Positions 1,880 to 16,051 of a stretch of DNA of 32,000 nt are shown here, piece by piece. Made by a program: the position numbers and the translations under genes. The stretch comes from Archaeoglobus fulgidus DSM 4304. Lineage in GTDB: Archaea > Halobacteriota > Archaeoglobi > Archaeoglobales > Archaeoglobaceae. Under the pieces are notes generated by a model. It worked only from the letters and a program-made list of their open reading frames with translations. It ran no database searches and had not been told where the DNA came from. Position 1 is the stretch's first letter; every line of letters starts with the position of its first letter. The stretch covers positions 120,001 to 152,000 of the forward strand of contig NC_000917.1 of NCBI RefSeq assembly GCF_000008665.1, written 5' to 3'.

Positions 1880-3015
1880 GGCCTATCACCCAGCACAAAA
1901 ACAAGATTCTTCTGAGCACACAACCCCCACTGAGCATGAGCCAAAGCAGTTCTGCAATCTTCGACCTGATTCTCTGCCTCACCCCTGACCTGCCTTGCAG
2001 CCTCAATCAGCCTTATCATTCCCGTTGCGCAAATCGCATCACCAGCCAAAGCTCCACCGCTGGGATTGACGGGCATGTCTCCGTAAACCTCCGTAATTCC
2101 CTCCTCAATCAGAACCTTCCCCATTCCATCTCTGCAGAAACCAAGGGCCTCGTAGGCCATTAGCTCATGGTGGGCAAACCTCTCCGAAATCTCAGCAACA
2201 TCAATCTGCCTGAAGGGCTCTTCAATACCCGCCATTCTGTACGCTTTCTCAGCAGCAAGCCTCAACGACTCAAGCCTTCCCAAGTCTCTGTCCCTCAAGT
2301 ATCTGTCGCAGGAATTGCCAATGCCCTTAATCCAAACTGGTTCATCGCAAAGCTCTTTTGCCACCTCCTCGCTGGCAAGGACAACAGCAGCAGCACCGTC
2401 GCATGGAGGGGCAATCATAAGCTCTGTAAGCGGAGAGGAGTATAGCTTTGATTCCAGCACCTCTTCAACAGTTACATCAGCCATTTTTCTGAAGGCATAG
2501 GGAACCTTTGCAGCATTCCTCAGGTTTTTAACGCAAACCTCTGCCAGATGCCCCTCATCCACCCCACTCCTGCTCATGTAAAGCCTCGCCTGTAAAGCTG
2601 CGAGCGTAATTCCATTCAGCAATTCATTCTGCCTGTCGAACCACGGCTCAAGCATGTACTGCGAAACCTGATGGGGGTTGAAAATCCAGCTGTGAGTGTG
2701 GGAGATAGCTAAAGCAACATCATGAACACCGCTCATTATTCTCTGGGCAGCGTAGAGTGCAGCATACATGCCATCCTCCTCAGCCTTGCTCTCATCCTTC
2801 AGATAGGCCCCGCTGGCCCCAATCAGCATGCAGTTTGAAATCGTTCTCCCATCAAGGAAGTCCGTTGATGCACTTATTACCGTCCCAACATCCTCCCTCT
2901 CAACCCCAGCCCTTCTCATCGCTTCCCTCGTAACCTCAAAAACTGCCTCCTCCCTCGTCTTCTCTGCATCCCACTCCAGCTTGCTTACTGCATAGCCAAT
3001 AATCGCCACCCTCAT
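1876..3015 (-). CDS. thiolase-fold protein, paralog of 644-1879
   Basis: The ORF track gives 1876-3072. I prefer the internal start MRVAIIGYAVSK at 3015, which gives a 4-nt ATGA-type overlap with the upstream DUF35 stop at 3012. The thiolase-fold blocks are SGVHDVALAISHT, NPSGGALAG and LVFVLG. Confidence 0.8.
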   Translation of the reverse strand: MRVAIIGYAVSKLEWDAEKTREEAVFEVTREAMRRAGVEREDVGTVISASTDFLDGRTISNCMLIGASGAYLKDESKAEEDGMYAALYAAQRIMSGVHDVALAISHTHSWIFNPHQVSQYMLEPWFDRQNELLNGITLAALQARLYMSRSGVDEGHLAEVCVKNLRNAAKVPYAFRKMADVTVEEVLESKLYSSPLTELMIAPPCDGAAAVVLASEEVAKELCDEPVWIKGIGNSCDRYLRDRDLGRLESLRLAAEKAYRMAGIEEPFRQIDVAEISERFAHHELMAYEALGFCRDGMGKVLIEEGITEVYGDMPVNPSGGALAGDAICATGMIRLIEAARQVRGEAENQVEDCRTALAHAQWGLCAQKNLVFVLGDRP

Positions 3016-3458
3016 TCTATCACCCTGAAGCCAATAAGGTCTGAGGGCTTCCCCTCGGTCTTCTCCGCCCACACAGGCTCAACCTTGGAGCCGAGCTTCA
3101 CATCTCCCTCAACTCTTGCAAAAATTGTGGAGCTGGCTCCATCAAGCTTTATGGCGGCAAGAACCTCGGGCTTTTCCAGCCATATGTAGCCTCCCTTCCC
3201 GTCAAGCTTGAAGTTAACCTCCGTAAAGCTCTCCACCACCCCTCTGCCACTTAGCTCAACCAAGCAACTCTCACCCAGTTTTGAGTAGCACTGCGGGCAA
3301 ATCTGCCTCGGCGGGACGACAGTGTAGCTGCACTTTTCGCACTTCGCTGCCATTATCTTCTTCTCCTCAAAAGAACGGTAGAATCTCTCCATCAGCTTTC
3401 CAACACTCCATCTGAACCTCGCCACAAAGGGCAGACCAGAGTACCTGTCAACGCCCAT
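3012..3458 (-). CDS. DUF35-type zinc-ribbon/OB-fold protein
   Basis: CEKCSYTVVPPRQICPQC zinc ribbon plus an OB-like C-terminus. I prefer ATG 3458 (MGVDRYSG) over the TTG at 3479 because an AT-rich TATA-like box (3483-3500) lies about 30 nt upstream of it. Confidence 0.8.
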   Translation of the reverse strand: MGVDRYSGLPFVARFRWSVGKLMERFYRSFEEKKIMAAKCEKCSYTVVPPRQICPQCYSKLGESCLVELSGRGVVESFTEVNFKLDGKGGYIWLEKPEVLAAIKLDGASSTIFARVEGDVKLGSKVEPVWAEKTEGKPSDLIGFRVIE

Positions 3459-3503
3459 GTAACAATTATTAATGAGCAAATATTAAATTTTTAAGGAATT
3501 TAC

Positions 3504-3521
3504 ATGAGCATAAATGCTCAT
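3504..3521. repeat. perfect inverted repeat ATGAGCA-TAAA-TGCTCAT overlapping the stop codon of the 3518-4075 gene; possible terminator hairpin
   Basis: Read directly from the sequence: 7-bp arms and a 4-nt loop. Function not established. Confidence 0.3.
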
Positions 3522-4075
3522 ACTCTGCGGTAGAATTTCAGAGTAAAGCCATTGGTCGAGATGCTTTTAACAACATCCCACTCCCCTTTGTAGTATTTCT
3601 CGTAGATATTGAGGATGTGCATGGCCAGAAACTCGCTCACCTCCCTCCTGCGCATCGTGTGCTCGCAAAAAATCTGAATCCACCCATCTCCCTTTGTAAT
3701 CTCCACATAATCAACCCTGTTGAGAACTTTCCAGCCCCTCTTTACCGTCTCAAGAAACTCCTCAAGCTCTATTTCCGCAAAGGGCTTCTTCAAAAACCAC
3801 TCCACTGCAGTTTCCATCATACTCTCCTTTACAGCCTTCTCAATATCACCACATATCAGATGCATGTACTGGCTTCTCCCACATCCTGTGAAATCCAAAT
3901 CTCTAATAAGTCTTATAAGAAGGATGTCGTCTTCGCTGAGATTCCTGTCTTCTCTGTTGAGCAGTTTCAGGGCTGCCTCGATAACCTCATTGATGCCACC
4001 GTAGTCGGGTTTAAACTTTTCAATGATTCTGAACGCCTCCTCTGAAAGAGTGGTCTGAAGTCGTCTTTTTGGCAT
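3518..4075 (-). CDS. hypothetical protein with N-terminal ribbon-helix-helix-like segment (putative DNA-binding)
   Basis: 185-aa ORF. The N-terminus RRLQTTLSEEAFRIIEKF...INEVIEAALKLL fits the strand-helix-helix pattern of CopG/Arc-type RHH. I could not assign the C-terminal ~130 aa. Confidence 0.5.
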   Translation of the reverse strand: MPKRRLQTTLSEEAFRIIEKFKPDYGGINEVIEAALKLLNREDRNLSEDDILLIRLIRDLDFTGCGRSQYMHLICGDIEKAVKESMMETAVEWFLKKPFAEIELEEFLETVKRGWKVLNRVDYVEITKGDGWIQIFCEHTMRRREVSEFLAMHILNIYEKYYKGEWDVVKSISTNGFTLKFYRRV

Positions 4076-4178
4076 ATTTTTGATTAATTGTTATGTTCAA
4101 TAAATGTTTCGTAAAATTGGGAGAGATGATGTATAGGGTGTTCCTTCAACCCCTACTCAATCTCCTTCTATTAGCTCT

Positions 4179-4643
4179 GTGAAGCGAACAACGAGCTCAT
4201 CCACCTTCCCCTTCAACAGGACAAAACTACACAACCCTAAATCAAAAACAAAACCACCAAAATTCGAAAAATTAATCAAATCTAACCGAATCATCCTTTT
4301 TCAGGTGATTCAAGTGAAACTACCAGTAATTCCTGCCAGAGGAGACGAGAAATTGGAGCTCCTATCTCAAATCGTAAGCAAGCTTGAATCAAGAGAAGCA
4401 AAGAAATTGCTGGCGAGAAATGGAATATCTCCAGTCAATAAAGCCGTAGAGTACCTCAAAGTAATGGCTATGTTCTTCGAACTGGAGATTTCCTATGCTG
4501 TAAGCGAATTGAATAAGCGGTCAGAACTGAGAAAGTTCTTGAGGCTAAGAGAGGAAATAAAACTGAGATCTATCTACAGCTTCATGTCGAAATTTGAGGC
4601 TGAGCAGTTTATAAGCTTAGTTTTCTCCATCCTGGTCCTGTAA
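4179..4643 (+). pseudogene. transposase N-terminal-like fragment, family unassigned
   Basis: The C-terminal 110 aa (EYLKVMAMFFELEISYAVSELN...LRKFLRL...SIYSFMSKF) resemble helical N-terminal regions of IS transposases. The first ~45 aa are low-complexity and probably non-coding. No DDE domain follows in frame. Confidence 0.4.
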
Positions 4644-4739
4644 CAATAACAGCAATCGATAAATCCTCGACCAGAATTTACGATCCGTGAAGTCTGTTAG
4701 AGAGATCGTGAAGGAGCTCAAGGTCTTCGAGAGGAACAA

Positions 4740-5307
4740 GTGCCGCTCGAAGTCAAAATTCTCGGAATAGCACCTACGTCAGACATCTTCTACGAGGAGA
4801 ACGGCCAAGATCCTCTCATCCGGTTTCGCACAACGCCGTGCAGGATAAAGAAGTTTGAGGAGAAACTGCCCATTTCGACAGAGAAAAAGCAAAGAAATCT
4901 CGTTGCAATCGATGAAACTGTCGTTAAAGCTAACGGGAAGCGGTACTACGTCTTTGCGGCCATGGATGTGGAGAGGAACGAACTTATTCTGATGAGGGTC
5001 TACACGGCGAGGAATCACCTGACCGCGAAGTCCTTCGTCAAGGAAGTGCTGAATTACTGCGAGGGTAAGCCGAAATTCGTCGTAGATAAAGCTCCCTGGC
5101 TTAAATCAGCTTTAGAGAGCTTTGGATTGGAATACGAGCACGAAACCTTTCGGGAGGAGAAGCAAGGTTGAAGCGGTGTTTTCTTCTTTGAAGCAGAAGA
5201 TCAAGATCTTTTTCTGCTCTATAACAGCAAAGAATCCCGTGAGGAGCTGGAATCTGTTCTGCAAGCTGTTCATGCTGTACTACAACCATCTGAGGTGGTT
5301 AAGTTGA
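4740..5307 (+). pseudogene. IS6-type DDE transposase, frameshifted
   Basis: The DDE core is readable: AIDETVVKANGKRYYVFAAMDVERNELI ... FVVDKAPWLKSAL ... HETF. The frame then shifts near 5150, and the catalytic-E segment KVEAVFSSLKQKIKIFF...YYNHLR continues in ORF 5122-5307. A helix-turn-helix-like piece (VSHNAVQDK) sits in a third frame around 4800-4850. Confidence 0.75.
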
Positions 5308-5353
5308 CAGGATCATCGCTCAAACCAAAAAGTTGAAATTTTTCAAAACTGCC

Positions 5354-5872
5354 TTACTCCTTAACCCACTCGCTGAGATAAACCTTGAAGGTCTTCCCGA
5401 ACTTCTCCCTCACAATCAGGTCCTTTTCCTCAAGCTTCTTTATAATCATGGACATCTTGGAGTTGGAGAAATCCGTTCTCGCCCTCAGTGAGTCCTGTGT
5501 GATGCCTTCATTCTCTGCAATGATTTTCAAAACCATTGCCTCGTCATCGTTGAGGAGCTTCATCGCAGTTTCGAGCTTGTCTGTGGTAGATCTTTCCTTG
5601 GCTTCAGATATGGTGGCTGTTTGAGCCTCCTGCACAACTTCTGCCTTCTCATCCTGCGTGCTTAAAATGAGGTACGCCGAGAGGAAAATCAGGATTAGAC
5701 CACCCATCCCGAAAATGATAGGCAAAATACCCATGTAGGCTGGTCCCATCATCATGTAGTGGTGCGACATGGGGGAGAAGCTTAAGTAGAGGAACAGCAG
5801 GAAGATTCCGGCTACAAGCAGCACAGCCTCAGAGCTTCTGACCTTCATCAACCTTAAACCTTCCTGAGACAT
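5354..5872 (-). CDS. membrane-tethered winged-helix (MarR/ArsR-like) regulator with Met/His-rich outer loop
   Basis: 172 aa with two predicted TM helices (AVLLVAGIFLLFLYLSF; ILPIIFGMGGLILIFLSAYLIL) bracketing the loop SPMSHHYMMMGPAYMG. A charged linker follows, then the wHTH MVLKIIAENEGITQDSLRARTDFSNSKMSMIIKKLEEKDLIVREKFGKTFKVYL. Confidence 0.7.
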   Translation of the reverse strand: MSQEGLRLMKVRSSEAVLLVAGIFLLFLYLSFSPMSHHYMMMGPAYMGILPIIFGMGGLILIFLSAYLILSTQDEKAEVVQEAQTATISEAKERSTTDKLETAMKLLNDDEAMVLKIIAENEGITQDSLRARTDFSNSKMSMIIKKLEEKDLIVREKFGKTFKVYLSEWVKE

Positions 5873-5999
5873 TTTTAAATTTTCGCTCCTTTGCTTAAAT
5901 CGCCCATTGAATTTACAGGCTGCATGTTTTTTGGGTAAAAAGATGCCAGGATGGTAAACGAAAGGTATAAATGAATCCTTAAGCCCTTTTCTTCTATGA

Positions 6000-6012
6000 T
6001 AACAGTGTTAAT
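6000..6012. promoter_or_regulatory. palindromic operator-like site TAACAGTGTTAAT in the wHTH/methyltransferase divergent promoter
   Basis: The site lies ~28 nt downstream of the TATA-like GTATAAAT (about 5965-5972) and 14 nt upstream of ATG 6026. The same 14-mer TAACAGTGTTAATT recurs at 25846-25859. Confidence 0.55.
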
Positions 6013-6025
6013 TTTGAGGTGTATT

Positions 6026-6781
6026 ATGGTAAAATCAACCACGAGAAAGTCTGCCAAGAGTGACAGAAGAAGATACAACAGGATAGCGAGGTTCTACGAC
6101 CTCTTTGAAACTCCAATGGAGTTAATGAACTTCAGGAAGTGGAGAAAAATGCTCTTCGACCTCATAAAAGCTGAGAAAGGTCTTGTGCTCGAAATTGGTG
6201 CAGGGACTGGCAAGAACATTCCACACTATCCTTCCAACGTTGTGGCGCTGGACATAAGCGAGAAGATGCTTGAAAGAGCGGTGAGAAGGGCTAAAGAGAG
6301 CGGTAAAAAAGTTGATTTTCTTCTGGCAGATGCGGAGAATCTTCCTTTCCGCAGTAACAGCTTTGATGTAGTTTTCACAACCTTCGTTTTCTGCTCCGTA
6401 GATGACCCGGTCAGAGGTTTAAGAGAAGCGTTCAGAGTGCTGAAGAAGGGGGGAAGGGCATACTTTCTGGAGCACATGCTCCCCAAAAGCAGGTTTTTGC
6501 ATCCACTCTTTAACCTCCTCAATCCCATATTCAGGGCATTCGGACCTGAGATTAACAGGAGGACGGACGAAAACATACAAAGGGCAGGATTCCAAATCGT
6601 TAAGGAATACATGCTTTTTGGTAGTGTTTTCAGGTTGATAGTGGCAGAAAAGCCTCTTGATTCAGTAGATGAAGCGTCTGGTTACAGTTTGAAACGTTCT
6701 GAATCATCTGACAGCTCCAATTTTAGACGTTTCATCGGGCAATCCCTATTGCCTTTGAGGTTAACACAGTTATTGAGGTGA
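6026..6781 (+). CDS. class I SAM-dependent methyltransferase (Methyltransf_11/UbiE-like)
   Basis: Motif I is VLEIGAGTGKN, followed by an acidic post-I residue, LLADAENLPF and DVVFTTFVFCSVDDP. I prefer start MVKSTTRK at 6026 over 5996. The C-terminal ~45 aa look non-conserved. Confidence 0.85.
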   Translation: MVKSTTRKSAKSDRRRYNRIARFYDLFETPMELMNFRKWRKMLFDLIKAEKGLVLEIGAGTGKNIPHYPSNVVALDISEKMLERAVRRAKESGKKVDFLLADAENLPFRSNSFDVVFTTFVFCSVDDPVRGLREAFRVLKKGGRAYFLEHMLPKSRFLHPLFNLLNPIFRAFGPEINRRTDENIQRAGFQIVKEYMLFGSVFRLIVAEKPLDSVDEASGYSLKRSESSDSSNFRRFIGQSLLPLRLTQLLR

Positions 6782-6787
6782 TGCGAA

Positions 6788-7087
6788 ATGAACTGGAAGA
6801 AGGTTGGAATAATTGTCGCCCTCGCCATCGCTGCAGGGCTGTATGTTGCGGCAGCGATGCCATGGGGCATGGGATATGGCCCAATGATGGGCTACACCCC
6901 GATGATGGGCTATGGAGGAGGAATGATGGGTGGCATGATGGGTGGCTACGCACCACAGTACGGCCCCTCAGGGCAGGGATATGGCCCTGCGTATAACTAC
7001 ACCGACACTCCACAGCAGCCTCAGGGCTACTACGTGCCTTACGGGTATTACGGAGGTCATGGCTGTCCGATGATGGGCTACTGGTAA
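6788..7087 (+). CDS. membrane-anchored Met/Gly/Tyr-rich small protein
   Basis: 99 aa. GAGGTGAT lies 7 nt upstream of the ATG. After an N-terminal TM/signal segment (VGIIVALAIAAGLYVAAA) comes MGYGPMMGYTPMMGYGGGMMGGMMGGY...GHGCPMMGYW. A paralog lies at 9885-10174 (-). Confidence 0.65.
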   Translation: MNWKKVGIIVALAIAAGLYVAAAMPWGMGYGPMMGYTPMMGYGGGMMGGMMGGYAPQYGPSGQGYGPAYNYTDTPQQPQGYYVPYGYYGGHGCPMMGYW

Positions 7088-7104
7088 GGGCTGGTGGGAG
7101 TAGC

Positions 7105-7566
7105 ATGCGGAAGGTTTTAACCCCTATTTTTTTGATTCTCATTCTAATCCCTGCAATCTCGCAGGGATTCAACCTTCTCTCCCCTCAACCCGCTGGAGTC
7201 AACAAAACAGTTTACATCGAAGCCTTCCAGTTCGGATACAGAGTTGTTGCAATTCAGGAGGGAGACAAGCTTTACTACCCCAGCACTCCATCGCTGAAAC
7301 TCAACGCTGGCGACACTGTAACCTTCCATGTTGTCACAAAGGATGTTACTCACGGCTTCACGATTGACGGCATAACAGACGGCATTGCTGAAGAACTGCT
7401 GGTTATTCCCGGAAGAACGCTGGTTGTGGGGCCGGTAACATTCACCGATGTCGGGAAGTACAGAGTCAGGTGTTCGGCAAATTGCGGTTCTCTGCACCCC
7501 TTCATGAGCATTGATATAATTGTCGAGCCCAAAATTCCATACTACGCCCTTTCCGCTTTGCTCTAA
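7105..7566 (+). CDS. cupredoxin-fold protein with CuA-type ligand set (COX2-like domain), N-terminal signal/anchor
   Basis: 153 aa. DVTHGFTI ... VIPGR ... GKYRVRCSANCGSLHPFM gives H-x39-C-x3-C-x3-H-x2-M. A hydrophobic N-terminus and a C-terminal hydrophobic tail are present. Confidence 0.75.
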   Translation: MRKVLTPIFLILILIPAISQGFNLLSPQPAGVNKTVYIEAFQFGYRVVAIQEGDKLYYPSTPSLKLNAGDTVTFHVVTKDVTHGFTIDGITDGIAEELLVIPGRTLVVGPVTFTDVGKYRVRCSANCGSLHPFMSIDIIVEPKIPYYALSALL

Positions 7567-8975
7567 TGGTAGGCTTTGCAGCACTGCTTTACGATGGGAG
7601 TGGAGGGGGAGAAATCAGGTTTAGGGCAAGACTTCTTAAGCCCAGATGGGTTATTTTCCTACTCACAGCGATAAATCTTTCCGTTTTCCTGCTCATAATT
7701 TTCACAGGTCTTTTCGGCAGTGCTGTTGGCAGTGAGAACTTTTCCATTGCCGTTACGTGGATTCTCTGGTTTGCGTTAGTTGAGTTCATGATTCTGTTCG
7801 CTGCAAGAGTCTGGTGTGCCGTCTGTCCCATTCCTGTCATAGGAGAGTGGCTCAAAAGGAGGAGGATTCTGGGAGTGAGGGAATTTGAAAGCAGCTTCAC
7901 TTTTCCCGCAAGATACAGGAACATGTGGATTCCAGCCATTGGCTTCCTTCTGCTTTCCCTGTTCATTCCGTGGATAGTAACCAAGCCCCTCGTTACAGCT
8001 TTGCTCTTCATTTCCCTAATTGCTGTTGCGACGGCAATGTATCTCATCTATCCTCCAAGATACTTCTGCAGGCACGTCTGTCCGGCAAGCGGATACATCG
8101 GCTATCACTCCAATGCCTCCCTCCTTGCTTTGAGGAGTGAGGACAGGGAGAAGTGCAGGAGATGTGAGAAGTTCTGCCTGAAAGGGAGCGAAGAGGGTTA
8201 CGCCTGCCCGTGGAAGCTATATCCCGGAGGGAACGAGGAGAACACCTACTGCGGGCTATGCCTTGAGTGCCTCAGGACATGCAGATACGACAACCTCAGC
8301 TTCAGGCTCAGGTTGCCCTTCGAAGAGCTTTCAAAGAAGGCAGTAAGAGCTGGTAAGGCTCTGAAGCTCGATGAGGCGGCGATGGGATTCATAAGGTTCG
8401 GTCTGGCTATCTTCTACGAGCTTTTCTTCTTCGGCAGCCTCTACTGGCTCAAGGACTTCGGCAACATGGGCAATCCCTATGGAGTGAACTTGGAGAACGC
8501 TTATCTACTCCTTCCATCCTTCTTCGGGATTGTCAAGTGGCTTATATGGGCTGGAATCGTGGTCGGGACAATCGCAGCCTTCGCTGGGCTTTACTACATC
8601 TTCAGCTGGATTGGTGCGAGAATTGCCAAAGTTGACACCAAGCAGCTTTTCGTGGCCCTCAGCTACTCCTTGGCCCCTTACGGTCTCCTTGTGTGGGCTG
8701 GTTTTGCAGTTGGGCTGCTCGCCTACTTCCACATCTATCCATTCAGCGCCTTCCTCGACCCCTTCGGGGTGGAGAAGAATGCCTTTCCAGTGGCGAACGT
8801 CAAGCTCATAATACAGATTCAGGCTCTCTTCATTGCTGCAGGACTTGCTTCTGCAATTGTTGCAACTAAGAGGGTAGCCAAGAGGTTGACAGATAAATTT
8901 GAGGCCCTCACAGCGGTTTACAGCGTTCCTCACTTAATTGCAGCCCTCACGCTGATAAAAATCATAGCGGGGTGA
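7566..8975 (+). CDS. polytopic membrane iron-sulfur protein, NapH/NosR/MauN-type architecture
   Basis: 469 aa. Membrane-proximal motifs WCAVCPIP and FCRHVCPASGY (CxxCP / CxxxCP), plus CRRCEKFC...ACPW and CGLCLECLRTC Cys clusters. There are about 4 TM helices before the clusters and about 5-6 after. The start overlaps the upstream stop (TAATG). Confidence 0.7.
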   Translation: MVGFAALLYDGSGGGEIRFRARLLKPRWVIFLLTAINLSVFLLIIFTGLFGSAVGSENFSIAVTWILWFALVEFMILFAARVWCAVCPIPVIGEWLKRRRILGVREFESSFTFPARYRNMWIPAIGFLLLSLFIPWIVTKPLVTALLFISLIAVATAMYLIYPPRYFCRHVCPASGYIGYHSNASLLALRSEDREKCRRCEKFCLKGSEEGYACPWKLYPGGNEENTYCGLCLECLRTCRYDNLSFRLRLPFEELSKKAVRAGKALKLDEAAMGFIRFGLAIFYELFFFGSLYWLKDFGNMGNPYGVNLENAYLLLPSFFGIVKWLIWAGIVVGTIAAFAGLYYIFSWIGARIAKVDTKQLFVALSYSLAPYGLLVWAGFAVGLLAYFHIYPFSAFLDPFGVEKNAFPVANVKLIIQIQALFIAAGLASAIVATKRVAKRLTDKFEALTAVYSVPHLIAALTLIKIIAG

Positions 8976-8979
8976 GATT

Positions 8980-9360
8980 ATGAAGAAGGAGATTGCTGCA
9001 TTGCTTTTCGTAATCCTGATTTCCGCAATACCTGCATACCTGACCTACGACTACATTGAGTCCAGAAAGGAGAAAAATAACCCGGAGATTGTCATTGAAG
9101 CCCACATCACCGAGTCGGGTGGATTCAAACCCAACTACATTGTCGTTCCCAAAAGCAGCAAGGTAAAGCTCGTGTTTAAAGCTGCCGATGTGACCCACGG
9201 CATATTCATCCCGTCTCTCGGCATCAACGAGCTGATTCCTGCGGGCAAGGAGGTGGTGGTGGAGTTCTACGCCGAGAAAGAGGGGGTTTATCCCTTCATG
9301 TGCTCCGTTTACTGCAGTCCCTATCACAGGTTCATGCGGGGTATCATAGTTGTTGTTTAA
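8980..9360 (+). CDS. cupredoxin-fold protein with canonical CuA spacing (COX2 C-terminal-domain-like), N-terminal TM anchor
   Basis: 126 aa. DVTHGIFIPSLGINELIPAGK...GVYPFMCSVYCSPYHRFM gives H-x34-C-x3-C-x3-H-x2-M. GGGGTGAG lies upstream of the ATG, and the gene starts 4 nt after the upstream stop. Confidence 0.8.
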   Translation: MKKEIAALLFVILISAIPAYLTYDYIESRKEKNNPEIVIEAHITESGGFKPNYIVVPKSSKVKLVFKAADVTHGIFIPSLGINELIPAGKEVVVEFYAEKEGVYPFMCSVYCSPYHRFMRGIIVVV

Positions 9361-9385
9361 TAAGGAGTGCAGAAACATAGTCGAA

Positions 9386-9885
9386 TTAGTTCGGATTACT
9401 TTTCTGACTGCTCCCTTTTCTCAAATTTTTTAAGCAAAGCAGCGTTCGCGCTCCGTGCACCAGCTTTCCTCCGTATTCGCCGGTTATAGCAAAGAATACC
9501 AGAGCCATTGCAAGGGCAGCAAGAGAGTAATCTGTCAGGGAGTGCAGCACAACATATACAACCACGAAAACGTAACCTACGATGCCCGTGATCACCTTTC
9601 TCTGAATTATTGGAACTTTCCTCATATCGTAGCGGTACTTCCAGTCTATAAGCCCTGTAAGCATCGTGAGAGGTGTAACAATTGCAACGAACGACATCAT
9701 CGCCATGCAGCGACATCTACACACGCTGGCAGAATTATGTGGGATACTGGAATGTAGCTCATAAATCTGTCTGACCTGGCAACTAAGGCTAAGGCGAAAG
9801 ATGCCGGTGTTATGCCGTTTGTGAAATGGGTAAGAATTGGATGCAAATTCCTCAGCGTTACAAATCTTACGAGAAGCGGTATCAT
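9386..9885 (-). pseudogene. DUF2231-like membrane protein, apparent frameshift near 9700-9720
   Basis: The N-terminal piece (9885-9697) carries NLHPILTHFTNGITPASFALALVA. The C-terminal piece (9724-9386, other frame) carries ...ITGEYGGKLVHGA. Together they make one ~165-aa 4-TM protein. The family assignment is from memory of the HP..vHfP and GG.LV motifs. Confidence 0.6.
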
Positions 9886-10174
9886 CAGCCGAGTTCCTTC
9901 AGATAGGCTATGATATCGTTCAAGTCCTCATCGCTCATCTGCCACCTTGGCATGCACCAGTCGAGGGTTTCGTTATCATGCTCCCCCCATTTGAACTGGA
10001 CTCAGCAGGACCCTGACAGCAGCCCGGTGGGTAGTAGCGCTCATCACTGTAGCCCATCATTCCGCCACCGTAGCCCATCATGGGCATGTAGCCGTAGGGA
10101 GTCAGGAAGTTCAGCAGGAAAATCACTACCGCTACAATGGCGATTATCACTACAATCAGTTCGGACTTTTCCAT
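9885..10174 (-). pseudogene. Met/Gly/Tyr-rich membrane-anchored protein (paralog of 6788-7087) with a frame change at a homopolymer
   Basis: ORF 10174-9935 encodes a TM segment followed by YGYMPMMGYGGGMMGY. After the G6 run (C6 on + strand, 9983-9988) the -1 frame reads EHDNETLDWCMPRWQMSDEDLNDIIAYLKELG. That frame ends in a TGATG stop/start overlap with the DUF2231 start at 9885. Confidence 0.55.
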
Positions 10175-10212
10175 ATGATTTATTGTAAAGAATTGTTAAA
10201 ATTTTTCTAAAG

Positions 10213-10862
10213 CTATTGCAGCAGCCTCACCAGAGCCATAACCTGATGCAATCCAAAAATCGCCGTTGGAATTGCCGCACAAACTGCTGCCTGCTTTAAT
10301 TCAACATTGCGAGCGTTTTTAAGGGCGAAGGTCCAGATTAAGAAGCTCCAAGCAGTAACGGCGAGGTTCAGGAAGATGGCAGAATAAACGTAGCTGTCGG
10401 GGAAGTGGCTTACAAGTGATTTGACAAGAATTTCCGGATTTGCCGACAGCTCCTGCAGGTCAATTGTAGGGATTGTTGCTTCCTCAACATACTTCAGAGA
10501 CACCGGGATAGTTACAGCAGAGCCAAGCAAAGAGGGCATAAAGCCGTAGCCTGCGAACTCAAAGGTTCTTCTGAGCTCTCCTCTGCCATCAAAAAATGCT
10601 GAAAGACCGTGCATGACTGCAGCGATTATCAGCCACGCAGCAAAGAAACCGAGAAAGGTTGAAACAAGCTGTATGTACGCTCCCGCTATGAAGAAGGATT
10701 TAAGGCTTTCCGGAAGGGCTTGGGAGAGCTTCAGCATAAGCCTGTACTGGTAGAGGGCTGCAAGAAGCGAAATTCGAGAACGATCAATGCTGGTTTTTTA
10801 AGGTTGGTGTTTTGGCTGAGCATCAACCGGAAGAATTCGTCGGGGTTTGTTATTAGCTTCAT
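10213..10862 (-). pseudogene. Yip1-domain-like membrane protein, apparent frameshift near 10740-10780
   Basis: The 174-aa ORF (10737-10213) has 4-5 TM helices. An upstream 43-codon ORF from ATG 10862 (MKLITNPDEFFRLMLSQNTNLKKPALIVLE...) reads like the family N-terminus but lies in another frame. Confidence 0.55.
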
Positions 10863-11005
10863 GCTTGCACGGGACGGCATCGATTTTATAATATTTTGCT
10901 ATTTGCTACTAATGAGTAAAGATTAAATATAGCAAGTGTCAATGATTTTGTGAAGCATGTCGAGTTAGTTGGATGGAGGCTGCGAGAGGGTGGGATGAAG
11001 AAGTG

Positions 11006-11230
11006 ATGAAGTGGCTTGCAGTGGCGATTTGTTTGGCGATGGTTGGGATGGCTGTGATGCCAGCGTTTCAGCCACTAAACTTGGCTTTTGAGCTGTACTA
11101 CGGCCATCACGAATCGCTTCCGATTACGGCTGCCTCAGCAGCGTATGAGGGTATCGTTATCACAGCTACTTTGGCTGCCGCAGCAGCAACTGCGGAATTG
11201 GTGCACCTGTTGTTGCAGCAGTTCTTATAA
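11006..11230 (+). CDS. small hypothetical protein with signal-peptide-like N-terminus
   Basis: MKWLAVAICLAMVGMAVMPAFQP... preceded by GGTGGGATGAAG. I recognised no family, so coding status is uncertain. Confidence 0.3.
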   Translation: MKWLAVAICLAMVGMAVMPAFQPLNLAFELYYGHHESLPITAASAAYEGIVITATLAAAAATAELVHLLLQQFL

Positions 11231-11258
11231 TGTCAAGTCCTATAGCGATAGAATAGCC

Positions 11259-11629
11259 ATGAAACCGTTAGAAAAAGCTCTGTTCATAATCGGGGCTGGA
11301 GCACTGTCAAATTACATGTATTCAATTTTTTGTCATCCAAATACAGTGTCGATCCCGCATTCACAGTTTCAACGATGGTCTTTGCTTACGTGTTAGTCTC
11401 CGGGTTCATGTTGGTATTGGGGATAAAATACGGAAGAACGAAAATATATTCTGTTTGGAAAGCCGGATTGATAATCTTAGCGGGGTTTGCTGTAATATTC
11501 GCAGCCGCTTGGATAGCCTTCACCGGAACGTCTGCTAGTCAGGAAAGGATAGGGCTAGCTAAGAGTTTATCGGTAGTGATGGGTCTGATTGCTGGAGTTT
11601 TGTCAGTTTATGTCCTATCCAAAAGCTGA
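11259..11629 (+). pseudogene. small polytopic membrane protein, possibly frameshifted at a T6 run (11326-11331)
   Basis: ATG 11259 gives MKPLEKALFIIGAGALSNYMYSIF. The hydrophobic reading then continues in the frame of ORF 11330-11629 (SSKYSVDPAFTVSTMVFAYVLVSGFMLVLG...). Alternatively the gene is simply 11330-11629 with a TTG start. Confidence 0.4.
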
Positions 11630-11632
11630 AAG

Positions 11633-12042
11633 TTTTGTTTTTTCGGCAATAATTTTTTCAACTTTCTTTTTGCTTGGGTACTATTTTGCGATTTCGTTTA
11701 TACTGCAAAAATATCCAGTGTAGATCATTTCACTCAAATATTTTTTAATAATGTCGAAGTTTGCCTGATTCGCATCATGGGTGGGGCAACACTTGGTGTC
11801 CCGACTTTCATACTTCTGGCTCTGAATGGCTTTACAGTTGGTCATCAACTTGGCTGTATGAATATAGGTTTAATTGAAAAGTTAAGTATACAATACCCCA
11901 TGGCATTCTCGAAATCCCTGCCATCATCATAGCTGGAGCAGCAGGATTCAAAATTCCGTATGAAATTGCAGCATGGGTTGAAGCCAATGTCACGCTGAAG
12001 ATGGCGAAATTGATGCTGAAGGGTGTTAAATATGAAAGGTAA
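11633..12042 (+). pseudogene. SpoIIM/DUF95-like membrane protein remnant (no start codon, internal frameshift)
   Basis: Frame 1 reads ...HFTQIFFNNVEVCLIRIMGGATLGVPTFILLALNGFTVGHQLG and stops at 11932. Frame 2 reads IPHGILEIPAIIIAGAAGFKIPYEIA and stops at 12042. The NN..v, NG..G and PHGi.EipA blocks match the family as I remember it. Confidence 0.55.
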
Positions 12043-12155
12043 TTGGTAGCTGGAACAGATATGCCAAAGAGCCATCTAAAAGAAAGATTGTCAGATAATA
12101 AATCCCAGCATGTTATCTTAGCAACCTCATCGAATTTATAACGGAATCAGCGTGA

Positions 12156-12487
12156 CGCCAATGTCCGCAAACACAGCCTCCCACATCGTCGCCATTCCTA
12201 TCAGAAAAAGACAAGAAGGTAGGAAAGCAGGATTTACCAAAACAAAATATTCCTGAAAAGCAGGCAGAGGCGAATTCGGACAGAAATGGAACGCTTGAAC
12301 TTCTCGAAAACCTGCTTGATGAGGATGAGCTGACAGTTATGAAAATATTGCTGGAGAACAACGGCATAACTACCCATTGCACTTCAGAACAGGCTTCTCC
12401 CAGTCAAAGATATCTATGATATGCAAAACCTACAGGATACATCTGAGCGACTGGCTGAAAGGTTTGGCGGGAAAAGTGGACTCCTGA
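12156..12487 (+). pseudogene. decayed paralog of the membrane-tethered wHTH regulator (5354-5872)
   Basis: LLDEDELTVMKILLENNGITT aligns with LLNDDEAMVLKIIAENEGITQ. After a frame change, RTGFSQSKISMI aligns with RTDFSNSKMSMI and YRIHLSDWLK with FKVYLSEWVK. About 15 codons of the recognition helix/wing and the whole TM region are missing. Confidence 0.65.
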
Positions 12488-12539
12488 ATCCTTCAAGCTT
12501 TCAGGTTTTAGGGAGAATAGTTATATCTTAAAATACTTT

Positions 12540-12857
12540 ATGTTAATTATGAACGGATACATGCACCCCTACGCCTTTCCCTTCTTTGGAATGCTAATAT
12601 GGTGGATTCCGTGGCTGATTCTGGCCTATCTCGTGTATCAGGATGCAGAGAAAAGGGGAATGAACGGGCTGCTGTGGTTCATCCTCGTCATAATTCCGAT
12701 GCTCGGGATTCTTTTTCTGATTATATACATCGTTTTGAGGGAGAGCAAACCTGCGAGAGAGAAAACCCCCCTCGAAATCCTCAAGGAGAGGTATGCGAGG
12801 GGAGAGATAAGCGAGGAGGAGTACAGGAGGATGAAGGAGGAGTTGGAGGGGGGTTGA
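12540..12857 (+). CDS. small membrane protein with C-terminal SHOCT domain
   Basis: 105 aa with two TM helices around YQDAEKRGMNGLLWF. The C-terminus PLEILKERYARGEISEEEYRRMKEEL is the classic SHOCT pattern. The gene ends 3 nt before copB. Confidence 0.8.
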   Translation: MLIMNGYMHPYAFPFFGMLIWWIPWLILAYLVYQDAEKRGMNGLLWFILVIIPMLGILFLIIYIVLRESKPAREKTPLEILKERYARGEISEEEYRRMKEELEGG

Positions 12858-12860
12858 GGG

Positions 12861-14933: not shown

Positions 14934-14934
14934 C

Positions 14935-15078
14935 ATGCACGACCACAGGGCGAGGGTTCTCATACTTCTTCTCTCAGTCTTGGCGTTTTACTTCTTCTTC
15001 GTATCCACGAAATACGGGGTCAGAAGCGGTTTTGAGGTAACCCTGCTTACCTGTTGTCCCCCGTTCTCTGCACACTGA
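14935..15078 (+). CDS. 47-aa single-TM peptide with a C-terminal CC motif, tightly coupled to copB (speculative)
   Basis: The ATG lies 1 nt after the copB TAG. It encodes MHDHRARVLILLLSVLAFYFFFVSTKYGVRSGFEVTLLTCCPPFSAH, which is below the ORF-track size cutoff. A competing antisense ORF exists at 14988-15143. Confidence 0.3.
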   Translation: MHDHRARVLILLLSVLAFYFFFVSTKYGVRSGFEVTLLTCCPPFSAH

Positions 15079-15308: not shown

Positions 15309-15917
15309 TCACTCCCCAACCGTCACACTTCCGTACCACGGAACCCAATTGCCCCATCCTGCAACGTGGCCGAAGGCTGCGTTCATGCCGGTGTAGAAGG
15401 CCATTATCCCGGCCACAACGAGGATTAATATGGCCAGAACACCCAGAACCCTGCCAATTCTCTGGATGGCAAGCGTCGGTGAAAGCAGAGCCGCAAGTCC
15501 TGTGAGGAAGAACATAAGCCCCGCCTCAAGCGGCTCTCTCGTCATCCCGTAGTTCCAGATTACGAAAGCATAGACGATTGTTGGCAGGCCAAGCGGAGCT
15601 ATTGCTCCAGCAGCTCTGATGTCAAGGCCCTTGAACAGAACAACCCCAACAACAAGGCTTGCAATGCCGAACAGTGCGAAAGAGTCTATGAGAACTATGT
15701 TGTTTGAGCCCGGCAGAGGCCAGGTCATCATCCCCCATAGACCGGCGACGAGGGCGTAAATCCCTACACCAATGAAGTACGCTCCCATTCCCCTGTTGCA
15801 GTCATCGTTCCTCTTCCCCCTCACCACATTCATATACACCGCGCACGCTGCAGCAAAGAGTGTTACGCCCAGCAGCATCAGCCACAGGTCGAGCGGGTCC
15901 ATAAACAGCAAGGCCAT
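15309..15917 (-). CDS. polytopic membrane protein (DUF981-like from memory)
   Basis: 202 aa with about 6 TM helices and a MTWPLPGSNNIVLID loop. Function unknown. Confidence 0.7.
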   Translation of the reverse strand: MALLFMDPLDLWLMLLGVTLFAAACAVYMNVVRGKRNDDCNRGMGAYFIGVGIYALVAGLWGMMTWPLPGSNNIVLIDSFALFGIASLVVGVVLFKGLDIRAAGAIAPLGLPTIVYAFVIWNYGMTREPLEAGLMFFLTGLAALLSPTLAIQRIGRVLGVLAILILVVAGIMAFYTGMNAAFGHVAGWGNWVPWYGSVTVGE

Positions 15918-15931
15918 CCCATCACCACCCC

Positions 15932-15955
15932 AAACACTGTTACCTAACAGTGTTT
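15932..15955. promoter_or_regulatory. perfect 11-2-11 inverted repeat AAACACTGTTA-CC-TAACAGTGTTT (two adjacent AACA-N-TGTT palindromes) in a core promoter
   Basis: Read directly. It sits between the TATA-like ATATAAA (minus-strand sense, ~15953-15962) and the start codon at 15917. Confidence 0.6.
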
Positions 15956-16051
15956 ATATTTAACATTATAAGCATTATGCATTTTTGATTGCATTTTCAA
16001 AACCGATTTTAGGCCAACCAAAAACTTTTTAAATTTAGGCTATCCTAAACA

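Follow-up and report, generated by a model that had tools for sequence, protein, structure and literature searches.

NosR/NirI and PceC (RdhC) are membrane proteins in which an N-terminal extracytoplasmic redox domain, an FMN-binding head, is combined with CX3CP-type transmembrane (TM) helices and a cytoplasmic two-cluster ferredoxin-like domain; NosR probably feeds an enzyme that contains CuA. The quinol-dehydrogenase-type ferredoxins NapH, NosH, and MauN have 4 TM helices, and NapH and NosH are paired with NapG and NosG, respectively. CcoG (FixG/RdxA), a membrane polyferredoxin of the Fer4_5 superfamily, is genetically linked to a P1B copper ATPase, to cuproprotein maturation, and to cbb3 oxidase biogenesis. 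The CuA domains of oxidase subunit II (T. thermophilus ba3 and caa3) and NosZ are cupredoxin folds with a complete H, C, C, H, M pattern; S. pneumoniae CupA and the CopA N-terminal domain are cupredoxin-like Cu(I) chaperones, membrane-anchored and part of a copper-efflux context, and CupA has neither of the two His ligands and does not form a redox centre. The NosR/PceC-type family is modular and serves different periplasmic reductases, and NapH-like proteins are an established modular apparatus for extracytosolic electron transfer (PMC8238504).

The first-pass annotation presented the A. fulgidus cluster analysed here (AF0140-AF0145) as undescribed, but AF0141-AF0144 have been discussed in silico as a "nitrate-reductase-like complex" (Hocking et al., 2015; PMC4543118), and the nar operon of Methanoperedens, which is highly expressed, contains the same trio of HCO-II, 9-TM NapH-like, and HCO-II proteins (Arshad et al., 2015; PMC4683180). 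On CO plus sulfate, AF0141-AF0145 were co-induced 5- to 19-fold (14.1-fold for AF0141, 19.4-fold for AF0144, and 6.5-fold for AF0145), along with the cytochrome c gene AF0190; AF0140 was not reported as co-induced, and CopB is not among the induced genes given (PMC4543118). Neither paper noticed the gene fusion, the frameshift, or the copper-gene context described below, and neither tested function. A CuA-headed polyferredoxin would be a little-studied transmembrane electron route, here without an attached oxidase and in an anaerobic archaeon.

Gene structure of the locus

The window (the whole 32,000-nucleotide stretch of A. fulgidus DSM 4304 DNA that was analysed) contains the following features:

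5354-5872, minus strand: winged-helix (wHTH) ORF, divergent from the operon
5996/6026-6781, plus strand: methyltransferase ORF AF0140
6788-7087, plus strand: AF0141, Met/Gly/Tyr-rich 99-aa peptide
7105-7566, plus strand: cupredoxin 1 ORF (AF0142)
7566-8975, plus strand: polytopic Cys-rich ORF (AF0143)
7105-8975, plus strand: AF0142 and AF0143 read as a single gene, split by a 1-nt deletion at 7554/7555
8980-9360, plus strand: cupredoxin 2 ORF, AF0144
9386-9724, minus strand: AF0145, 112-aa membrane ORF with 3 TM helices, convergent
9935-10174, minus strand: Met-rich 79-aa ORF
9888-10174, minus strand: decayed Met-rich cytochrome c gene (the 79-aa ORF plus an out-of-frame C-terminal remnant)
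12540-12857, plus strand: SHOCT-domain membrane protein (SHOCT match)
12861-14933, plus strand: CopB, His-rich P1B-type ATPase (E1-E2_ATPase and Hydrolase matches)

All of the ORFs and strands originally annotated are present, the junctions measure 6, 17, -1, and 4 nt as given, and CopB, placed about 3 kb further on, begins 2.7 kb downstream. The five packed genes of that description are in fact four, with one of them frameshifted. The -1 junction had been taken as a boundary between two genes, but one G that is present in A. fulgidus DSM 8774 and in 12 metagenome contigs is missing from the window at 7554/7555 (TCCGC instead of TCCGGC); that strain and these contigs all encode a single 623-aa protein. 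The cupredoxin and the polytopic protein are likewise fused in 27 of 27 aligned archaeal relatives, including all Archaeoglobi relatives. To judge by these alignments, the -1 junction is a frameshift inside one native gene. The strain comparison yielded nine single-base indels and ten substitutions across 13.9 kb, which suggests sequencing errors in one assembly. Fragments of insertion sequences lie directly upstream of the cluster.

Cupredoxins and the 623-aa fusion protein

A scan of all six reading frames finds the motif C-X3-C-X3-H-X2-M at exactly two places in the window, 7471 and 9301 (0.037 occurrences expected by chance, the mean of 300 shuffles), and each copy is preceded upstream by the His of a DVTHG sequence. 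Both cupredoxins thus carry the full H...CX3CX3HX2M ligand set, as first proposed, and both match the COX2 and Cupredoxin_1 families of Pfam, while scoring below the CoxB and NosZ equivalog cut-offs. The ligand residues are H83, C123, C127, H131, and M134 in cupredoxin 1, whose nearest counterpart is the ba3 CuA domain of T. thermophilus (profile E 1e-16; Foldseek E 1.8e-5), and H73, C108, C112, H116, and M119 in AF0144. AF0144 is signal-anchored, matches Cupredoxin_1 (4e-13) and COX2 (4.6e-11), and aligns with the ba3 CuA domain ligand for ligand (E 1.8e-9); its score to S. pneumoniae CupA is weaker (E 2.8e-7). The motif is retained in the downstream cupredoxin of archaeal and bacterial loci, the bacterial version being fused to cytochrome c like caa3 subunit II.

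The fusion starts with a Sec signal, after which come the CuA-signature cupredoxin, 5 TM helices in which the CxxCP and Cx3CP motifs lie, a ferredoxin-like domain with two clusters, and a conserved, family-specific 5-TM C-terminal domain. The polytopic part matches Fer4_5 and NapH/MauN profiles (Pfam/NCBIfam), and the NapH/MauN match (40 bits, cut-off 213) spans both CX(2-3)CP motifs and both Cys clusters; the best families, TIGR02163 and NF007013, score 37-41 bits against cut-offs of 213-234. The overall architecture originally described holds up: a CuA-signature cupredoxin outside the cytoplasm, an FeS membrane protein of NapH-like type, and another CuA cupredoxin. Of the two 4Fe-4S-type Cys clusters that had been claimed, the first departs from a canonical CxxCxxC and reads C-x2-[C/H]-x3-4-C...CP throughout the family. 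An alignment of 28 homologues shows 60-odd invariant residues, Cys and Pro among them, and the A. fulgidus copy keeps these and all of the ligands. Among the fused homologues, one subgroup no longer has Cys1, His, and Met of the CuA site; the family thus does not strictly require CuA. Positive-inside topology and an AF2 model (pLDDT 78, pTM 0.78) predict that the cupredoxin head lies outside and the FeS domain in the cytoplasm. A Foldseek search of the fusion against the PDB matched the cupredoxin domain alone, leaving the membrane part without structural precedent.

The fusion shares the domain order of NosR/NirI and PceC, but its head is a CuA cupredoxin (FMN_bind finds no match in it), it has the extra C-terminal domain, and its gene is always followed by one for a second, free CuA cupredoxin. 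Compared with NapH, NosH, and MauN, it has 10 TM helices rather than 4, and cupredoxins take the place of a NapG-like periplasmic ferredoxin, which is absent here. CcoG, whose action is on the cytoplasmic side, contains no cupredoxin, and TIGR02745 (CcoG) and FixG_C do not match the A. fulgidus polytopic protein. Unlike the CuA domains of oxidases and NosZ, the cupredoxins of the window have no subunit I or NosZ propeller partner in it, and one is fused to a polyferredoxin. The Methanoperedens trio is, by its published description (PMC4683180), the same set, with five extra C-terminal helices on the NapH-like protein and two subunit-II-like flanking genes, but its genes are separate and lie in a NarGHJ-Orf7 operon, whereas in A. 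fulgidus the first two are fused and no Mo enzyme is adjacent.

Synteny and flanking genes

The family comprises 625 clusters at E<1e-30. Archaeoglobi, Chloroflexota, and 60 dereplicated metagenome clusters all keep the order cupredoxin, polyferredoxin, cupredoxin. The neighbourhood conservation that had been put forward as a check is strong, and the surrounding genes are clade-specific. One clade occurs in operons for type II Mo enzymes (Nar-like, of the DMSO-reductase family) with alpha, beta, chaperone, and heme-b gamma subunits; the enzyme genes adjoin the module at nine dereplicated loci (upstream in 8, downstream in L057), and four short contigs resemble the same operon. A bacterial clade occurs with PCYCGC, YHS, Cu-ATPase, and Cus genes, and the Archaeoglobi clade, which is separate from the Nar-linked one, with regulators, Sco1, and P1B ATPases. 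In about 17 Archaeoglobi-type loci, no type II enzyme lies next to the module. Neither heme-copper oxidase subunit I nor NosZ was found among the large ORFs of the window, as had been stated, and 919 kb of flanks from 80 related loci contain no subunit I signature motif and no NosZ-like ORF; for Ferroglobus, a nosZ neighbour of the module has been reported (PMC4543118). The label "orphan" for these CuA domains thus fits the Archaeoglobi-type clade, but not the sister clade, which is hard-wired to type II enzymes.

The proposed link to copper genes is borne out in the relatives. P1B ATPases lie within 10 kb of the module at 4 Archaeoglobi-type and at least 5 bacterial loci (L025, L027, L028/L021, L014, L048, L050, L054, L067, and L069), Sco1 is in the operon at five (L011, L034, L058, L064, and L095), and YHS, HMA, PCYCGC, CusCBA, DsbD, and a CupA-like cupredoxin occur nearby. 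Three SHOCT genes adjoin the module in L008, and the SHOCT protein and CopB of the window represent a copper-export neighbourhood that recurs beside it. Other members are fusions of Sco/AhpC, cupredoxin, and polyferredoxin or of two cupredoxins and polyferredoxin, have cytochrome c or c554 replacing a cupredoxin, or carry a GltD-like NAD(P)H-flavoprotein (Fer4_20 plus Pyr_redox_2) inserted at the cytoplasmic FeS domain. The attachment of NAD(P)H-flavoprotein modules and of cytochromes c speaks for a role in exporting electrons.

The divergent regulator is membrane-tethered, as annotated: two TM segments surround a His/Met-rich outer loop, SPMSHHYMMMGPAYMG, ahead of a C-terminal MarR/DUF7343 wHTH (DUF7343 2.9e-10; MarR_2 4.5e-7). 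The loop is identical in the orthologue of Archaeoglobus sp. UBA230 (L002:5605-6087), and regulators hold the same position in relatives (TrmB in L011; HTH_5/TrmB with DUF7521 in L021/L022; a 668-aa membrane protein with a wHTH in L008). The AF0140 ORF opens at 5996 and probably starts at ATG 6026, after GAGGTG and a TATAAAT box at 5966. From its profile matches (Methyltransf_11, 1.4e-26; TIGR01934, 96.7 bits, under the 158 cut-off), it is a UbiE/MenG-like class I SAM methyltransferase. Both L002 (65% identity) and L008 (51%) have an orthologue close to the module, and a true MenG/UbiE (213 bits) is directly 3' of it in the Nar-type locus L060.

AF0141, a candidate Cu(I)-binding peptide, has an N-terminal anchor, 13% Met, PMMGY repeats, and the C terminus GHGCPMMGYW; it has no family match in Pfam or NCBIfam, an orthologue in UBA230, and an 84-aa homologue in L026. 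What had been read as a second Met-rich paralogue is instead the stump of a Met-rich cytochrome c. UBA230 holds an intact 181-aa version (CVNCH; Cytochrome_CBB3/Cytochrom_C match), and tblastn of this protein against the window gave 76% at residues 52-72, 82% at residues 149-181, and nothing between; the C-terminal 33 residues persist out of frame at 9986-9888, and some 76 codons, the heme motif among them, are deleted. The gene is truncated in both A. fulgidus strains. A 41-nt inverted DNA match (85%) connects it with the Met-rich region of AF0141. AF0145, annotated as DUF2231, has no Pfam or NCBIfam match at E<=1, even with two adjacent ORFs joined, and it is not conserved in relatives, being absent from the same position in UBA230.

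Proposed electron transfer and alternative readings

We favour, at a probability of about 0.6, the reading that the product of the locus is a transmembrane electron conduit without heme, a member of the NapH/NosR/PceC (NapH-like polyferredoxin) superfamily in which a CuA-type cupredoxin head replaces the usual flavinylated FMN domain. Its native core would be two proteins, the 623-aa fusion and the second signal-anchored cupredoxin. The most probable entry point for electrons is the cytoplasmic side, with ferredoxin- or NAD(P)H-derived Fe-S, the menaquinone pool, or both as the donor; their exit would be by way of CuA(1) and then CuA(2), towards an acceptor outside the cytoplasm. The chain ending in CuA envisaged in the first-pass annotation is kept, with quinol as one possible donor; the fusions favour a cytoplasmic NAD(P)H/FeS donor at least as strongly. 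No acceptor gene adjoins the module in the Archaeoglobi-type clade; in A. fulgidus the role could fall to the periplasmic Nar-type/(per)chlorate reductase AF0174-0176, to c-type cytochromes (AF0189/0190), or to copper ions. Expression and maturation may be tied to copper, given the His/Met loop of the membrane wHTH, the anchored Met-rich peptides, Sco1 in relatives, and the nearby P1B copper ATPase. Against a conduit, no cofactor evidently bridges the ~30-40 Å membrane span, because the Cys motifs and clusters are all predicted on the cytoplasmic side. The same problem stands for NapH and NosR. The A. fulgidus copy also shows decay (the frameshift in the window strain, and the truncated cytochrome c in both strains), and the expression data, from CO plus sulfate, are silent on copper.

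The module might instead be the (mena)quinol dehydrogenase or anchor of AF0174-0176, a periplasm-facing Nar-type enzyme (PMC6299022, PMC8322695) encoded about 30 genes away. The Nar-linked loci and the Methanoperedens operon favour this, and in F. placidus the locus tags of the AF0176 orthologue (Ferp_0124) and the reported module (Ferp_0128) suggest adjacency. We nevertheless consider it rather unlikely, as the Nar-linked modules form their own clade, none of the roughly 17 Archaeoglobi-type loci has the enzyme alongside, A. sulfaticallidus reportedly carries the module but does not appear in the list of genomes that contain an AF0176 homologue, and induction on CO plus sulfate came without (per)chlorate. 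Doubtful, too, is an oxygen-independent copper redox defence, in which electrons would go to extracytoplasmic copper (turning Cu(II) into Cu(I), or Cu(I) into something insoluble) or to copper-damaged thiols, and Met-rich peptides would recruit Cu(I) alongside the efflux ATPase. It would account for the P1B ATPases and other copper genes near the module, the regulator loop, and the Met-rich peptides of the cluster, and the polyferredoxin CcoG is reportedly a cupric reductase (Marckmann et al., 2019); Met-rich domains recruit Cu(I) in CueO (PMC11494321). The same neighbours would be equally expected if they only supplied copper to CuA sites, however, and the CcoG profile does not match. Oxidation of Cu(I) by menaquinone would be uphill, making Cu(I) would add toxicity, and, as the Nar-linked clade demonstrates, ordinary respiration is a role that the module can fill.

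That the cupredoxins are CupA-like copper chaperones or sinks rather than electron carriers, with a separate role for the FeS protein, is very unlikely. AF0144 does resemble CupA, the context is one of copper efflux, and a C..CxMxM CupA-like cupredoxin lies beside a Cu-ATPase in L014/L015, but the two His ligands and the CX3CX3HX2M spacing that mark true CuA are all in place and conserved, ba3 CuA scores better, the domains are predicted to lie outside the cell, and the covalent fusion to a polyferredoxin and the replacement by cytochrome c in relatives argue for a redox function. It is highly improbable that the genes are the degenerating leftover of an earlier nos or oxidase cluster, transcribed but functionless in A. 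fulgidus. The frameshift, the deleted heme domain, and the upstream IS fragments would fit such decay, as would the frameshifted AF0189/0190 and the nosZ neighbour in Ferroglobus (both Hocking et al.; PMC4543118). The fused gene is intact in DSM 8774 and the 12 environmental contigs, however, and the indel count suggests sequencing errors in one assembly; the ligands and invariant residues are kept, synteny is wide with no NosZ-like ORF or subunit I motif in the 919 kb of flanks, and the genes are strongly and specifically induced.

Gene structure, neighbors, and expression of the locus

Every ORF that the first-pass annotation had placed in this locus was recovered at the same coordinates, and the junctions of 6, 17, -1, and 4 nt between the operon genes were reproduced. 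The features are:

5354-5872 (-): winged-helix regulator
6026-6781 (+): AF0140, methyltransferase
6788-7087 (+): AF0141, Met-rich peptide
7105-7566 (+): AF0142, cupredoxin 1
7566-8975 (+): AF0143, polytopic 469-aa FeS protein
8980-9360 (+): AF0144, cupredoxin 2
9386-9724 (-): AF0145
9935-10174 (-): Met-rich 79-aa ORF
12861-14933 (+): CopB

The -1 junction had been taken for a gene boundary but instead reflects a 1-nt deletion, and cupredoxin 1 and the polytopic protein make up one 623-aa protein. The nearest database protein is 623 aa long, equal to cupredoxin 1 joined to the polytopic protein; the unbroken fused gene is found on 13 contigs, and all of the archaeal homologues that were aligned (27/27) have the fused form. 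The top protein match to the window was 100% identical, and 13.9 kb could be aligned to A. fulgidus DSM 8774 (L017) at 99.86% identity. A base-by-base comparison revealed that one G is missing in the window at 7554/7555 (TCCGC vs TCCGGC in DSM 8774). Over window positions 1108-14974, the two sequences differ by 10 substitutions and 9 single-base indels (4739, 4771, 4778, 7554, 10740, 10774, 11060, 11118, and 11189, several of them in or near ORFs), a ratio of 9:10 that suggests sequencing errors in one of the two assemblies. The missing G is no less likely to be a sequencing error than a genuine mutation. We rejected a true -1 overlapping gene pair and a programmed frameshift in favor of a 1-nt deletion or sequencing error, and the annotation of AF0142/AF0143 is corrected to one gene.

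The module had been put forward as undescribed, but its genes are AF0140-AF0145, which already appear in Hocking et al. (2015), and the same trio appears in Arshad et al. (2015). Few transcripts are induced on CO plus sulfate; they include AF0141-AF0145 (AF0141 14-fold, AF0142 8.6-fold, AF0143 5-fold, AF0144 19-fold, and AF0145 6.5-fold), and the cytochrome c gene AF0190 (4-fold) and noxC (3.3-fold) are also induced under this condition (Hocking et al., 2015; PMC4543118). The highly expressed nar operon of Methanoperedens encodes HCO II, a 9-TM NapH-like protein that has five extra transmembrane helices, and HCO II (Arshad et al., 2015; PMC4683180). In both papers, the fusion and the copper context went unnoticed and the function was left uncharacterized. 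A literature search on PCYCGC and on polyferredoxin, cupredoxin, and copper resistance in combination found no description of the module.

Family searches identified the gene divergent from the operon as encoding a MarR/DUF7343-type winged helix after two hydrophobic segments, and the leading operon gene as encoding a UbiE/MenG-like methyltransferase. AF0145 had been assigned to DUF2231, but 9386-9724 gave no Pfam or NCBIfam match at E≤1, even with neighboring ORFs joined. The 79-aa ORF, previously regarded as a second Met-rich peptide paralogue, is what remains of the N-terminal part of a Met-rich cytochrome c, and its annotation is corrected to a decayed cytochrome c. This cytochrome is whole in Archaeoglobus sp. 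UBA230 (181 aa, CVNCH, Cytochrome_CBB3/Cytochrom_C); in the window, its final 33 residues remain at 82% identity in another frame (9986-9888), and ~76 codons, the heme motif among them, have been deleted. Also in UBA230 (L002:6173-8866), a thioredoxin-like gene, CcmF, and CcmH lie between the regulator and the methyltransferase in the same operon, a position that is empty of them in A. fulgidus; with CcmF and CcmH inside the operon, the module is linked to cytochrome c maturation.

The Met-rich regions of AF0141 (6890-6930) and of the decayed cytochrome c gene (10053-10093) match each other in inverted orientation over 41 nt (85%), which shows DNA-level paralogy or, possibly, gene conversion. 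Directly upstream of the regulator start, at 5884-5899, is a 16-nt element, CGCTCCTTTGCTTAAA, with an inverted copy (94%) at 9429-9444 within the 3′ end of AF0145; it may serve as an operator, but chance is the probable explanation. Just upstream of the regulator lies a fragmentary IS element (4179-5171, with a DDE_Tnp_IS240 domain in 4740-5171 and the adjoining 154-aa ORF), and three of the DSM 8774 indels fall in this region.

The CuA-signature cupredoxins and the polyferredoxin

Both small cupredoxins matched Pfam COX2 and Cupredoxin_1; with COX2 (PF00116; cut-off 22 bits), cupredoxin 2 scored 43.1 bits and cupredoxin 1 scored 22.7 bits. Both contain a His...Cys-X3-Cys-X3-His-X2-Met ligand set. 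The claim of two CuA signatures was borne out: when the 32 kb are translated in all six frames, C-X3-C-X3-H-X2-M appears exactly twice, with one copy per cupredoxin, compared with a chance expectation of 0.037 (mean of 300 shuffles). When cupredoxin 2 was aligned by phmmer with the Thermus thermophilus ba3 CuA domain, the ligands matched one for one, and this domain also gave the best Foldseek matches to the AF2 model of the 623-aa protein (pLDDT 78; E 1.8e-5, TMt 0.66). The cupredoxins scored 44.2 and 49.5 bits against CoxB (TIGR02866), below its cut-off of 147.7, and matches to the NosZ models were limited to the C-terminal approximately 80-100 residues, at 29-47 bits (cut-off 625). A search with cupredoxin 2 by itself recovered only 3 close relatives, and a search seeded with an alignment gave nearly the same set as the initial one.

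The CuA-type ligands are kept in archaeal and bacterial homologues, with the exception of a subgroup of five fused Archaeoglobaceae proteins (P0014, P0026, P0027, P0031, and P0033). In this subgroup, RCxxxCGxLHPFM is changed to KDPVxCDALNPF[D/E]Y (columns ~170-185 of alignment A1): the CuA ligands are replaced, one Cys is retained, and acidic residues are gained, and the same scaffold could hold another metal site.

The cupredoxins are unlikely to be CupA-like copper chaperones. Cupredoxin 2 matches CupA at E 2.8e-7, but the His ligands and the CuA spacing are conserved and the cupredoxin domain is joined to a redox protein. The CupA-type Cys...Cys-x-Met-x-Met arrangement without His is absent from AF0144, which has His, Cys, Cys, His, and Met, and a true C...CQMGM cupredoxin in a related locus (L014) is a separate gene.

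The 469-aa polytopic protein gave a Fer4_5 match and a weak NapH/MauN match. We derived the layout of the 623-aa protein from an AlphaFold model (pLDDT 78, pTM 0.78), hydropathy, and charge distribution. From the N terminus, a Sec-type signal and an extracellular cupredoxin precede TM1, and a basic loop in the cytoplasm then leads into TM2-TM3, at whose end lies C238-x2-C241-P. Another basic loop connects to TM4-TM5, with C322-x3-C326-P at the end, and a ~85-residue cytoplasmic domain with ten Cys and five further helices complete the protein. The positive-inside rule places the cupredoxin outside and the FeS clusters inside, and both Cys motifs are predicted to lie at the cytoplasmic face. 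Two CX3CP-type membrane motifs and two cytoplasmic Cys clusters, the combination that marks NapH/MauN, are present. Across 28 homologues, C238, C241-P, C322, C326-P, C351, [C/H]354, C358, C368-P, C383, C386, C389, and C393 are invariant or nearly so, and the C-terminal membrane domain has an invariant set of D423, E424, Y438, W479, P525, W531, D552, and P553. The first cluster motif in these proteins is C-x2-[C/H]-x3-4-C...CP, and Cys or His at its second place would be compatible with a ligand role.

Scores against the NapH/MauN models TIGR02163 (40.1-40.6 bits vs 213) and NF007013 (36.9-37.8 bits vs 234) were below cut-off, and neither the window nor the neighborhoods examined contained a NapG-like periplasmic ferredoxin, NapAB, MauM, or NosG partner. 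There was no match to a NosR/NirI/PceC-style FMN_bind head, the N-terminal domain being a cupredoxin, and the window proteins and 28 homologues gave no match at E≤1 to CcoG/FixG (TIGR02745, FixG_C Ig-like domain). A Foldseek search of the PDB found no solved structure like the membrane part; the cupredoxin alone matched. Judged by sequence, the polyferredoxin is a distant member of the NapH superfamily and not a NapH. Whereas NosR and PceC carry FMN-binding heads, the A. fulgidus fusion carries a cupredoxin head. NapH-like proteins have been described as a modular extracytosolic electron-transfer apparatus in which the known heads are FMN binding, as in NosR and PceC, and cupredoxins go unmentioned there (PMC8238504).

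Distribution, fusions, and genomic contexts

At E<1e-30, a profile of the polyferredoxin part retrieved 625 representative clusters, and relaxing the threshold to E<1e-10 raised this to 1532; a single-protein contig scan found only 7 close relatives. Neighborhoods were obtained from exact-protein look-ups and a metagenome scan, which returned 278 relatives; 80 loci were kept, forming 60 clusters at 90% identity. The family comprises several hundred sequence clusters from anaerobic Archaea and Bacteria, in three genomic contexts (Nar-like molybdoenzymes, copper-efflux islands, and stand-alone regulated operons), and the module is wider in spread and context than Hocking et al. (2015) and Arshad et al. 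(2015) suggest. Conserved synteny, which the proposal of a module implied, was found: most loci spanning both flanks have the order cupredoxin, polyferredoxin, cupredoxin, with the first cupredoxin and the polyferredoxin fused or adjacent depending on the locus.

A neighbor-joining tree of the polyferredoxin domain resolved context-specific clades. In the Archaeoglobi-type clade, which holds the window, the proteins are always fused; upstream are an HTH regulator and often a ~135-aa cytosolic protein, and downstream is a CuA cupredoxin followed by either Sco1 or a 154-aa Met-rich protein and, in many cases, by a third cupredoxin. Genes for cytochrome c maturation or for cytochromes c are found in the vicinity. 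A P1B ATPase is encoded <10 kb from the module in the window, L025, L027, and L028/L021. Members of a second clade (L047, L057, L060, L061, L064, L066, L068, L074, and L086) adjoin the alpha, beta, chaperone, and heme-b gamma subunits of a type II DMSO-reductase-family enzyme, which is also the Methanoperedens arrangement, and a true MenG/UbiE sometimes comes after the module. The third clade is bacterial (Chloroflexota among others) and has PCYCGC, a CuA cupredoxin, the polyferredoxin, and a CuA-cytochrome c fusion, surrounded by YHS, HMA, a CupA-like cupredoxin, Cu-ATPases, CusCBA, DsbD, and two-component systems. In further clades, pairs of a sensor kinase and a sigma-54 activator precede the module.

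Representatives also include fusions of Sco/AhpC, cupredoxin, and polyferredoxin, and of two cupredoxins and polyferredoxin; in some, the cupredoxin is replaced by a monoheme cytochrome c or cytochrome c554 domain. In P0119, P0123, P0140, and P0147, the site of the cytoplasmic ferredoxin-like domain carries an inserted NAD(P)H flavoprotein of the GltD-like Fer4_20 plus Pyr_redox_2 type, and some of these four also have N-terminal AhpC/Sco-like and cupredoxin domains; from their domain order, they look like one-polypeptide NAD(P)H-to-outside electron exporters. This set of fusions argues that the outer head is an exchangeable one-electron carrier, that the inner domain communicates with a cytoplasmic reductant, and that electrons flow outward, and the pattern fits the view of NapH-like proteins in PMC8238504.

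As the first-pass annotation had noted, there is no heme-copper oxidase subunit I or NosZ among the other large ORFs of the window. No ORF in the 919 kb flanking the 80 related loci carries the subunit I signature (HPEVY/WxHH[MLF]), and there was no recurrent oxidase among 64 large neighbors. Beyond the polyferredoxin fusions and two overlapping ORFs in L065 that form an ambiguous pair (945 aa, CuA motif at residue 750), the 80 loci contain no NosZ-like ORF (>420 aa, C-terminal CuA motif). A CtaG-polyferredoxin fusion, P0252, adjoins a bc1-type cluster and was set aside as only a distant relative.

Electron route and candidate acceptors

The locus encodes a fused CuA-signature cupredoxin-polyferredoxin and a free CuA-signature cupredoxin, with conserved ligands and operon structure, and the module has copper-chaperone and copper-export neighbors. 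We favor, with a probability of about 0.6, the interpretation that it is a NapH/NosR-type transmembrane electron conduit with a CuA-signature head. What the first-pass annotation had observed was largely right, and its interpretation as a copper-linked electron-transfer module was right in part. Electrons from ferredoxin, NAD(P)H, or menaquinol would pass to the Fe-S centers, then to CuA(1) and CuA(2), and from CuA(2) to cytochrome c or a terminal enzyme. For heme-free crossing of the bilayer, the obvious candidates would be a bound quinone or a cluster on the four motif cysteines. Extracytoplasmic Cu(I) would be sensed by the regulator through its His/Met loop and bound by AF0141. To our knowledge, textbook accounts restrict CuA to cytochrome oxidase and N2O reductase; a CuA-signature domain as the outer end of a NapH/NosR-type polyferredoxin would be a third home for it. 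The module may offer a tractable system for studying heme-free transmembrane electron transfer by NapH/NosR-type proteins, with a fused, spectroscopically visible CuA as a built-in reporter.

An attractive acceptor is AF0174-0176, the periplasm-facing Nar-type/(per)chlorate reductase of A. fulgidus; the module would then be a candidate for the donor still missing for the periplasmic Nar/Pcr enzymes of archaea, those of nitrate-dependent methane oxidizers among them. The Nar-linked clade and the Methanoperedens arrangement point this way, as does Ferroglobus, in which the module is reported next to nosZ (Ferp_0128) and the AF0176 orthologue is Ferp_0124; the closeness of these locus tags suggests that the module adjoins the orthologue. 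However, the Archaeoglobi-type clade is separate and was never beside a type II enzyme in the loci studied, A. sulfaticallidus reportedly has the module but is unlisted for an AF0176 homologue, and induction was seen without (per)chlorate. Alternatively, the c-type cytochromes AF0189/0190, which are co-induced with the module, may accept the electrons and lead them elsewhere.

The acceptor may also be copper itself or copper-damaged targets, as the copper-gene context suggests, but that context is equally explained by a need to metallate CuA outside the cell. An extension of this idea is that CuA-headed polyferredoxins form a widespread, oxygen-independent copper-redox defense, in which a cytoplasmic reductant, acting through Fe-S and two CuA centers, shifts the redox state of extracytoplasmic copper caught by Met-rich peptides. 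We consider this improbable; if true, such an anaerobic defense would be the anaerobe counterpart of CueO/PcoA and a third biological role for CuA. Intact alleles, conservation, and induction make it unlikely that the A. fulgidus locus is a dead remnant.

A tetrathionate-reductase-like cluster, AF0157-0160, occupies 17695-24503 and encodes a 4Fe-4S dicluster subunit, a membrane protein of 361 aa that matched no family, a TtrA-like molybdopterin subunit of 1134 aa that scored under the TtrA cut-off (463 bits), a NarJ-like chaperone, and MoeA. Its TtrA-like Mo enzyme (19394-22798) is an unlikely partner of the module: it does not belong to type II and comes with FeS and membrane subunits of its own.

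Straight after CopB, 15309-16890 encodes a DUF981 membrane protein and the FTR1-type iron permease AF0154, which is induced 7.5-fold on CO plus thiosulfate (Hocking et al., 2015; PMC4543118). A small SHOCT-domain membrane protein is encoded directly upstream of CopB (12540-12857), and in L008 (5423-6337) three such proteins are encoded in tandem, adjoining a cytochrome c gene, next to the module. A Yip1-domain membrane protein is encoded within a few genes of the module both in the window (10213-10737) and in a bacterial PCYCGC-type locus (L023:12963-13739), which may be either coincidence or linkage. The window also contains genes of a redox or oxygen-stress style, encoding a sulfite/nitrite-reductase-like protein (25865-27175), a flavodiiron-type ODP-lactamase plus flavodoxin protein (27701-28711, minus strand), and a DUF438-hemerythrin-PAS protein (29663-30967).
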